A DNA stretch of 64,000 nt from an uncultured Gemmatimonadaceae bacterium (GTDB lineage: Bacteria > Gemmatimonadota > Gemmatimonadetes > Gemmatimonadales > Gemmatimonadaceae). Location: positions 59,954 to 123,953 of the forward strand of contig CAVVTZ010000002.1 of the NCBI GenBank assembly GCA_963751275.1. Reading direction: 5' to 3'. How positions within the stretch are numbered: position 1 is the first letter of the stretch; every line of letters begins with the position of its first letter. The position numbers were made by a program. Positions 39,001-42,000 of this stretch are shown in pieces.

Positions 39001-42000
39001 ACATCAGCCCGCCGCCAATGAGCAGCACGAACGCCAGCGCGACTTCGGCCATCACCACGCTGTTGCGCAGCTTCCGCCCGCCGCCGAGCCCTTCGTTGCG
39101 CCCGCTCTGCCGCAGCGTGGAGATGAGATCCGGGCGCGAGGCGCGGAGCGCCGGGATGATCCCGAACAGCGCCGCCGCGAGGAGCGCCGCGCCCACGGTG
39201 TAGAGCAGCACGGTGCCGTCGAGGCCGACGTACGCGAGATTCGGAATGTCCTGCGGCCCGATCGCCACCAGCATCCCGATCCCCGCCTTGGCCACGAGCA
39301 GCCCCAGCGCCGCGCCGCCCAGCGCGAGCACCAGCGCCTCGGCGAGCATCTGCCGCACCAGCCGCGCGCGGCTGCCGCCGAACGCGGCGCGCACCGCGAG
39401 TTCGCGCTCGCGCCGCGACGTGCGCACCAGGATCAGATTCGCGACGTTCGCGCACGCGATGAGCAGCACGAACGCCACCGCGCCCAGGAGCGCGACGAGC
39501 GCCGGCTTCACTTCGGACACGAGCTCCGCGGCCATGGGCACGGCGCGGAAGTACAGGCCGGCGGTCGTCTTGATCGGGAATTGCTTGCGCAGATCGATCC
39601 CCAGCGCGTCGAGCTGCGCTTGCGCCTGCTCGAACGTCGCGCCGGGCTTGAGCCGGCCGATCACGCGGAAGATCACGTTGATGCGCGACCCTTTCTCGAG
39701 ATCGATGCGCGACGCCTGGAAGACGTCGTGCTCGCGCGTGATGCCGTAGCGCGGCGGGAAGAGCAGTTCGAGTCCCGGCGGCGCGACGCCCACCACATGG
39801 CCCATGCTGAAGCCCATGTCCAGCGACTTCCCGATCACGTTGGGATCGCCGCCGAAATGACTCTTCCAGAATTCGTAGGAGAGGATGACGGAAACGTCCA
39901 GCGGCGGCGGCGGTGGAGCGTTCGCGGCCGGCGGCGTGGTCGGCTGCGGCGGGGGCGGCGTCGCGTCGTCGCTATTGAAATCGCGGCCGAGGATGACCTT
40001 GGCGCCGAGCACGTGCAGGAGATTCGTCGTGACGAATCCGAGCTTGATCTGCTCCGGCTCCCCCCGCTCGTTCCGGAGCGAGACACGGAAGTTGTTCAGG
40101 CCGGCGAGCTCGCTGAACGCCGTCACCTGCCGCCGCATGTCCCACAGGTCCGAGGGCGCGATGACGAAGTCGTAGACGTTCCGGGCGCGCATGTCGCTCG
40201 TGACGATCGCGAGGCGCGACGGATCCGCGTACGGCAGCGGGCGCAGCATGACGGCGTTCACGACGCTGAAGATCGCGGTGCTGGCGCCAATGCCCAGCGC
40301 GAGCGTGATGAGCGCGGTGATCGCGAAACCCGGGCTCTTCCGGAGGGTGCGGACGCCGTAAGCGATGTCGTTCCAGAACGTTTCCATGGGGCGCTCCGGG
40401 GCAGCGGATGGGTCCGGCGAACGGTTCTCAGTTGGACACGCGTCGCCGGGAAAAGGTGGCCCGGCGATCGCCGACCATGCAAGCCGCCGCTTGCGCCGCA
40501 AGCCTGGCGACTGAATGGTTAGAGGGACGCCTTCACTACGGAGCCCCATGCCGCATCGTGTCAGCGTTGTTCCGGCGGGCGCCGCCGGAGAAGCAAATCT
40601 CCGCCACGGCCAGCTCGATCCTCGGCAATCTCGAACGACCGCCCCGACCTCCGGAGGATTCCATGCTCCCCATTCGCGCCCTCGGCGCCGCGCTCGTACT
40701 GCTTCTCAGCTCGGGCCTCAAGACGGTCCCATATCTGCAGCTGCCGGGGATCACCGGCGAGAGCAAAGATGACGCCCACAAGGGGTGGATCGAGCTCGAA
40801 TCCGTGAGCATGGGCGTGCATGCAGGCGGGGGAGGCGGAGCGGCTTCGGGCGGCAGAGGCACGCAGCAGGCGACGCATGAGATCCACGTCGTGAAGGCCA
40901 CGGATAAGTCGTCGCCGTATCTCATGCAGGCGGTGGCCAACGGGAGACACTTCCCAACGGCCGAGATCGACATGGGCACGGTGCGATACGTGATGAAGGA
41001 CGTGATCATCTCGTCGCTGCAGCATTCGGGGTCAGCGAGCGCCGGCAGCGGCCAGCCCACCGAGAGCCTGACGCTGGATTACCAGAGCATTCAGTACGTG
41101 TACGCGCAGCAGCAACCCGAAACGAAGGGCACCCCGATCGCCGCGACCGTGCCGCGCACGACGATGACGCCGGCGCCAGTGGCGGGGACGCCGCCCGCGA
41201 CCGCGCCATCGACCACGATGCGCGCCGCGGCAGCGGCACCCGCGCCCGCCACGTCGCTCGCGCCCTCGGCCGCCGCGACGCTCGATGCCCAGCTCAGACC
41301 GTCACTGAGCGGTCCGGCGAAGCAATGGGTGGGCACCGAGGGCCGCACGCTCTCGCAGGCCACCGGCACGGCCGACCAGTTGGCGGCGAGCGCCCACCGC
41401 GCGGCGCTGGCGCGTTTCGGCGGGATCCAGCCGAACGTCGCGGGCGCACTTTCCTTCCTGGCGCTCATGGACGCCGCGAAGGTGAATCACAGCGCGCAGC
41501 TCCAGTCCGCGATCCAACAGGTGATGCCGACCACCAGCCCCGCCGCGGCGGGCGGGCTCGTGAATCTGAAATAGCGATCCTCGTTCCGCGTTCCTCGTGC
41601 CCCGGCACCGCTGCACGAGGAACGCAGAACGCGGCACGCTTCATTTCTTCTCGGGCGCCACCGGCTCCGGAAAGACCTTCGCCCAGTCGCTCGCGCTCAA
41701 CACCTTCTTGAGGTCGAACATCCGGTCGACCATGTGATTGGCGTTCGCCGAATCCGCGGCGTAGAACGGCCGCACCGCCGCCAGGATCTGCGCGTCGGTG
41801 GTGTTGCGGTCGGCGAGCGTGGTCTTGAGCGACGCCACGAGCTTCTTCCGCTCATTCAGGAACGCCTCGTTCTCCTGCTTCGCGGAATCAAGGATGGCGA
41901 TCGCCTGCTTCTTCGTCGCCTCCACGGTGATGTTCTTGCCTACCGCCTTGGAGGCATCCTCAATGTGCTGTTGCAGCCGCTGCAATGCACCACCGTGCAG

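Follow-up and report, generated by a model that had tools for sequence, protein, structure and literature searches.

The window analysed here, a 64,000-nucleotide stretch of DNA from a Gemmatimonadaceae bin (G000, 83% complete), carries a gene for an Hcp protein with a Sec-type leader in a genome in which no type VI secretion system (T6SS) gene was found. Hcp is treated as a hallmark of the T6SS, and secreted Hcp as its read-out. On balance, the sequence leans towards a true Hcp working outside a T6SS, namely a Sec-exported, T6SS-independent ring that displays six helical domains. The leader, the gene content of the genome and the score against TIGR03344 (TssD) together indicate that the window protein is not a T6SS tube subunit.

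Architecture of the window gene

The features considered below are given in window numbering; C2, C3, C9 and C11 are contigs of G000.

40548..40636, + strand: remnant of a partner gene (DNA matches to G254 at both ends and to G255 at the 5' end)
40653..40658, + strand: Shine-Dalgarno-like GGAGGA, 4 nt 5' of the ATG
40663..41574 (C2:100616-101527), + strand: intact Hcp open reading frame (ORF), 303 aa
40663..40728, + strand: Sec/SPase I-type leader, residues ~1-22, with a short n-region containing Arg5 and a hydrophobic core
40732..41103, + strand: Hcp/TssD domain, residues 24-147 (PF05638, E 1.4e-26)
41110..41262, + strand: Pro/Ala/Thr-rich linker, residues 150-200, pLDDT < 50, no secondary structure
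41269..41574, + strand: helical tail, residues 203-303, six helices, pLDDT 75-86
41588..41625, no strand: perfect 13-bp inverted repeat between convergent genes, likely a terminator
C3:31629-32129, - strand: second leader-bearing Hcp, 166 aa, intact ORF
C9:189660-190667, - strand: third leader-bearing Hcp, 335 aa, intact ORF
C11:122229-122891 (L086:8230-8892): intact paralog of the partner gene

Since the Shine-Dalgarno-like element stands before the ATG and no start codon occurs at the edge of the Hcp domain, the leader must be translated. A similar element precedes the orthologs in G254 and G255, two genomes of the same genus, both of which retain leader and tail, as do five full-length homologs with 54-61% identity; the copy in G252, also of this genus, is frameshifted. 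Met1 and Arg5 are invariant in alignment A4. The leader is modelled by AlphaFold with pLDDT < 50 and is short, at 18-22 residues. A 151-base contig of sequencing run X2, which is possibly not independent of the assembly, is identical to 40642-40792 with zero differences. No promoter was found by a scan at the window gene, and the inverted repeat was not called by a consensus terminator scan.

The Hcp domain scored 93.7 bits against PF05638, above the cut-off of 23.5, and 43.5 bits against TIGR03344, below the curated cut-off of 58.9. Structural comparison of the model gave a Foldseek E of 4.7e-10 with 3eaa and a VIA Z of 16.7 with 3v4h (rmsd 2.0 Å over 114 residues). The core Hcp motifs are invariant throughout the clade of ten members, all of which have the Pro/Ala/Thr linker, and alignment to 1y12 showed that the Gly-rich loop of Hcp1-type proteins is retained. 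The final strand, which bears the canonical Hcp Trp, is absent, and none of the ten members has a Trp C-terminal to the domain.

The window domain thus shares its fold and core motifs with the Hcp/TssD proteins of T6SS-i (Pseudomonas aeruginosa Hcp1, 1y12; Edwardsiella tarda EvpC, 3eaa), to which it is ~30% identical when structurally aligned. It differs from them in its leader, the lost last strand, the helical C-terminal domain and the score under the TIGR03344 cut-off, and neither TssB/C nor a baseplate, VgrG or membrane complex was found in the window genome. The orphan Hcp and Hcp-ET proteins (Hcp fused to a C-terminal toxin domain) of T6SS-bearing bacteria are not known to have leaders and use the T6SS of their host. 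They likewise lie outside a T6SS cluster and carry a C-terminal extension, as do the Hcp1-toxin fusions mentioned in PMC3482391; the window protein, unlike them, has a leader and an extension that matches no toxin family. A literature search found no description of a leader-bearing or multi-domain Hcp, a mention of which could stand in tables or in subscription papers.

The other two Hcp genes of the genome

The initial annotation had listed three Hcp-domain ORFs with leaders. All three proved to be intact, and all three leaders passed the fixed signal-peptide rule described below. The C2, C3 and C9 proteins exceed the PF05638 cut-off, with TIGR03344 E values of 3.1e-11, 4.5e-5 and 1.1e-11, respectively, all under the 58.9-bit cut-off. 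The long tail ascribed to one of them is present in the window protein and is, moreover, a conserved domain common to the partner gene. Two Hcp domains were ascribed to another of them; in the C9 protein, TIGR03344 matched two stretches and Pfam only one, and the second domain is weak. In the tree described below, the C3 and C9 paralogs lie on long branches, and their sequences point to more diverged exported Hcp proteins of the same broad class as the window protein.

Search for a T6SS and other machines

T6SS proteins identified through Pfam in G163 and G207 served as tblastn queries against G000. No match to TssM, TssL, TssK, TssB, ImpE, TssA, TssE, TssF, TssG, VgrG or TssC was found in this 83% complete genome; the search retrieved just the Hcp gene itself and Clp paralogs, the latter with the ClpV query at 39-40%. 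TssC and the VgrG hub were found in none of the four genus genomes (G000, G252, G254 and G255) and were both found in the control G163. Among these, G255 consists of a single contig and is 89% complete by markers. These results bear out the earlier claim that the genome has no T6SS.

Neither the phage-type sheath PF04984 nor the hub PF05954 was found in G000, G254 or G255, and G252 gave one phage-type sheath match, under the cut-off. FlhA/SctV (PF00771), found in G163, was matched in none of the four genus genomes (63-89% complete). The sole secretin of G000 sits in a type IV pilus cluster. In G255, the region C1:2326000-2344000 (L130) holds a second secretin, which is frameshifted, with a pseudopilin-like gene nearby; this region is possibly a type II secretion system, and none such was found in G000.

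Leaders and T6SS across the class

Leaders were scored by a rule of our own, which asks for a positive n-region, nine uncharged residues with a mean hydropathy of at least 2.0, and small residues at -3/-1. As background, 643 internal segments starting with Met were taken from long G000 ORFs, and 37 of them passed the rule. All ten full-length members of the window clade passed it.

Among the 251 genomes of the class sample, 43 are Hcp-positive (including G000 and the unpublished G022), 15 of these with TssC; no TssC match was obtained in the other 28, a tally that includes G022. Loci were read for 41 of the 42 Hcp-positive genomes besides G000, with G022 left out. Every TssC-adjacent Hcp started at the domain (14 of 14), and each of the other 27 carried an N-terminal extension. 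The signal-peptide rule was passed by 0 of the 14 TssC-adjacent Hcp versus 24 of 30 standalone Hcp (the 27 plus the three of G000), starts having been picked by eye from Shine-Dalgarno-like motifs and related genomes not being independent. The six standalone failures have hydrophobic leaders, yet miss the charge or hydropathy threshold. Eight extra loci of the family gave the same picture by eye: seven were TssC-adjacent without a hydrophobic leader (one start missing), and one lay apart and had a leader. The initial annotation had described TssC-adjacent Hcp as leaderless, which agrees with these counts; it differs from them in its five sheath-less loci without a leader, as all 27 sheath-less Hcp examined here are extended, although the strict rule is failed by 6 of the 30 standalone leaders.

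In the wider search described below, the 61 single-domain representatives likewise comprised 13 that start at the domain, none of which passed the rule, and 48 that are extended, of which 42 passed. These observations support that, as judged from the sequences, the leader tracks T6SS-independence in the class. In G203 (C103, C123) and G265 (L131, L137), a leader-bearing Hcp occurs separately from a TssC gene of the same genome, so that the two are not mutually exclusive. Since the Hcp proteins of the 28 genomes without a sheath match carry leaders, annotation from Hcp alone misreads those genomes. The proposal that Hcp was freed from the T6SS and given a Sec-type leader is thus supported by the class survey and by single-contig G255.

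In a quick, unrooted LG+G4 tree of 96 rows, the ten Hcp-tail proteins formed one branch (SH-aLRT 99). On this tree, 7-8 changes of the leader label are required, but only 2 are forced by the starred branches, which hints that the leader may have arisen more than once. The mean number of cysteines per Hcp domain was 0.64 in leader-bearing, 0.08 in six-domain and 2.0 in TssC-adjacent proteins. No conserved neighbour of standalone Hcp was seen by eye in 15 loci, where the genes sit alone among housekeeping genes, and no conserved cargo or immunity gene was seen near them in the 15 listed loci.

Chains of six Hcp domains

When 1.84 billion representatives were searched with the profile, 17,012 matched, and the best 150 of these were examined. 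The numbers of Hcp domains per protein are given below, complete proteins being counted by our own rule.

One domain: 62 proteins, 61 complete
Two domains: 18 proteins, 11 complete
Three domains: 6 proteins, 4 complete
Four domains: 7 proteins, 1 complete
Five domains: 5 proteins, 4 complete
Six domains: 49 proteins, 40 complete
Seven domains: 2 proteins, 1 complete
Eight domains: 1 protein

Because matches were ranked by summed score, long arrays are over-represented and the shares cannot be read as frequencies. Such a ranking would, however, also favour chains of seven or more domains, which are nearly absent. Two of the three proteins with seven or eight domains are fragment repeats: P0075 and P0108 have 7-8 repeats of a ~55-residue Hcp fragment, from the Gly-rich loop to the helix, and one of them has a planctomycete-type N-terminal motif.

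Among the 49 six-domain chains (for example P0009, P0017, P0029, P0033, P0037 and P0045, in the range P0009-P0157), regular expressions found a planctomycete-type N-terminal motif, which scores under the Pfam cut-off, in 15 and an RTX-type pattern in 10; only 3 pass the Sec rule, and 21 are without any tag that was sought. Pfam families on these chains include RTX, serralysin C-terminal, dockerin, Ig, PKD, cadherin and peptidoglycan-binding domains. Tagged Hcp proteins include P0029 and P0033 (RTX), P0037 (serralysin C-terminus), P0017 and P0023 (dockerin) and P0045 (peptidoglycan-binding), and PEP-CTERM occurs on two single-domain Hcp proteins (P0087 and P0106). The six-domain chains are candidate one-chain rings that would be exported via several routes. 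The indirect case for rings outside the cytoplasm is built mainly on the ceiling of six domains, which equals the stoichiometry of the ring, and on the several unrelated export or anchoring signals borne by Hcp proteins, although the six-domain chains are other proteins from other taxa than the window clade. These chains suggest that the hexamer is kept after export, and the earlier view that Hcp rings were retained gains indirect support from such natural chains.

The tail domain and its partner gene

The tail profile matched the profile of the partner family with an HHalign probability of 96.2% (E 2.4e-9). Most of the partner's long coiled-coil hairpin is missing from the tail, and P0050 and P0056 are bridging Hcp fusions with more of the helical module. 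No toxin family of Pfam or NCBIfam matched the tail, and an Atlas search with the tail alone gave no usable match. In the 101 codons of the tail, G254 and G255 differ by 20 synonymous changes and 2 that alter the amino acid; in the 128 codons of the Hcp domain, the numbers are 33 and 25, respectively.

The partner gene lies directly upstream of the Hcp gene in G254, G255 and G252 and encodes a leader-bearing, helical protein of ~220 residues. In the window, only its first codons and last ~16 codons are left (40548..40636); the two pieces are mutually out of frame, ~600 bp between them are missing, and the stop is lost. On translation, the 3' piece aligns with the C-terminal end of P0163, a member of the family. 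No contigs of sequencing runs were found over 40536-40602, and the missing ~600 bp may reflect a true deletion or an assembly error.

The partner family comprises at least 240 clusters from several phyla and has no name. It occurs in 4 of 301 genomes of the phylum, and none of 28 partner-family loci in other taxa has an Hcp gene within 5 kb; the link between Hcp and partner is therefore lineage-specific. The leader rule was passed by 57 of 129 partner-family proteins, and many family members are fused to ParD-like cytoplasmic domains. P0175, P0177, P0220, P0221 and others carry the helical module, leaderless, behind a ParD-like ribbon-helix-helix antitoxin domain. Sec leaders were seen on family proteins from Bacteroidota, Verrucomicrobia, Rokubacteria and others, and the family, represented by the C11 paralog and by loci L097-L124, shows a DIEALAFLVLM-like helix as well as a C-terminal helix that is needle-like. 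A tblastn search of plasmids with a partner-family protein gave no match, and the best match of the alignment A2 profile to PDB sequences had an E of 0.66. A complex prediction for a G254-type tail with the partner protein scored 0.00, which carries no weight either way.

The partner family weakly resembles type III needle subunits in sequence, and the helical family of the tail may be related to them. PF09392 (SctF) was matched by 12 of 22 partner-family members (best E 6.1e-5, 23.6 bits versus a cut-off of 29.4) and TIGR02105 by 9 of 22 (best E 0.0035, under the cut-off), the matching members being related to each other; a precomputed PF09392 label is attached to P0217 and P0257. Neither the window tail nor the partner in G000 matched the needle profile, and the family of the tail is not classed among type III subunits. 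The nearest named Atlas clusters to the partner are EspA, DUF720 and needle proteins at 0.81-0.85, with EspA the nearest (0.85). The partner protein may also resemble Bsp22. Its model (pLDDT 61.5) begins with a bundle at the N-terminus and ends in two long helices. Two such helices are described for Bsp22 and EspA as well (PMC12607632). The family differs from type III needle and tip proteins in that many members have Sec leaders and none of the four genus genomes yielded a match to FlhA/SctV, and the window tail differs from needle subunits in having lost most of the hairpin.

The fold search with the partner model showed nothing clear: Foldseek gave no match with E <= 0.001, and the best VIA matches, up to Z 7.9, were unrelated bundles. 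Similarities to type III gatekeepers (tail and YopN 1xl3, Z 8.6; partner and BopN/CopN/YopN, Z 6.4-7.8) were dismissed, being within the range of common helical bundles.

Discussion

A leader, an Hcp domain, a linker and a helical tail were observed in one protein, in a genome without any T6SS gene found. The leader would very probably send the unfolded chain through Sec and then be cleaved, leaving the protein to fold in the periplasm or farther out. Six subunits would then probably form the usual Hcp ring, presumably as a free single ring and not a sheath-wrapped tube. More tentatively, the ring could be a six-fold scaffold presenting the helical tails, which would act with a homologous exported partner, supplied from the same operon in the relatives and by the C11 paralog in G000. 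This reading draws on the homology of the tail, the operon with the partner in the relatives and the purifying pattern in the tail codons (2 amino-acid changes in 101); the shortness of the leader (18-22 residues), the loss of the last Hcp strand and the broken partner gene at the locus speak against it.

The needle-like features of the partner allow a reading, which we consider unlikely, in which components of two injection machines have been recombined into a Sec-exported assembly that needs no machine: a needle- or tip-like protein forms a periplasmic or surface filament and the Hcp-tail protein co-assembles with it by way of its homologous tail, the six-fold ring serving as base, cap or branch point. 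Unlikely, too, is a tube or fimbria without a sheath, periplasmic or on the surface, built of exported rings that stack head to tail and whose tails point outward. The retained Gly-rich loop, three paralogs in one genome that could make mixed tubes and the filament-subunit-like hairpin of the partner family would fit such a tube, but no baseplate, VgrG hub or sheath match is there to nucleate it, chains end at six domains and bear bulky adhesin modules, and in the 15 listed loci of the class the standalone genes are singletons surrounded by housekeeping genes. That Hcp carries effectors, as illustrated by the Hcp3-Tce1 and Hcp2-Hcp3-Bte1 entries among the structure-search matches, and that standalone Hcp genes are common in genomes without a T6SS match would suit an exported decoy or chaperone whose lumen binds incoming type VI effectors or the cell's own exported cargo, much as Hcp in the cytoplasm binds effectors. 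Such a role appears improbable, as no conserved cargo or immunity gene accompanies the standalone copies, the fusions point to adhesion and surface anchoring, and a comparison of G254 with G255 shows the Hcp domain evolving faster than the tail, which singles out no conserved ligand.

The loss of the last strand in all ten clade members and the long branches of the C3 and C9 paralogs could also mean that no rings form and that the domain is a monomeric beta-sandwich for binding or spacing; the tail, since several N-terminal domains, ParD among them, occur fused to the helical module, would then be a mere sorting or assembly tag on many unrelated proteins. We consider this as improbable as a decoy or chaperone: the core Hcp motifs are invariant in the clade and, without a ring, chains of six domains would be difficult to account for. 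Far less probable than all of these, and for the most part refuted, is an ordinary orphan Hcp of an unassembled T6SS whose leader is a chance upstream frame or an assembly error. G000 is only 83% complete and neighbouring genes are frameshifted; against this, the leader is kept in ten of ten orthologs, no in-frame start exists at the domain, single-contig G255 is without TssC and VgrG hub matches, and the X2 contig agrees exactly across the start of the gene.

With the Sec-exported ring as the favoured reading, the Hcp ring appears to serve a second, so far undescribed purpose outside the cell's cytoplasm. Were it to assemble after export by Sec or by a type I route, the fold of the tail tube would have a second, non-injecting role in cell envelopes. 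Natural single chains of six domains would offer asymmetric ring scaffolds ready for use. The tail, in addition, points to the large unnamed helical family of at least 240 clusters.

Several neighbours of the Hcp gene are split by frameshifts (window 28658-30803, 31290-33084 and 45021-48595), likewise in G252 and G255, which suggests indel errors of assembly. MacB-like permease and ABC-F genes also neighbour the Hcp gene; no link to it is drawn. Window 41641-42526 (- strand) encodes two small helical proteins that match no Pfam family, and the first of them begins with a lipoprotein-like leader; they are not listed in G254 and stand in the same place in G255 and G252.
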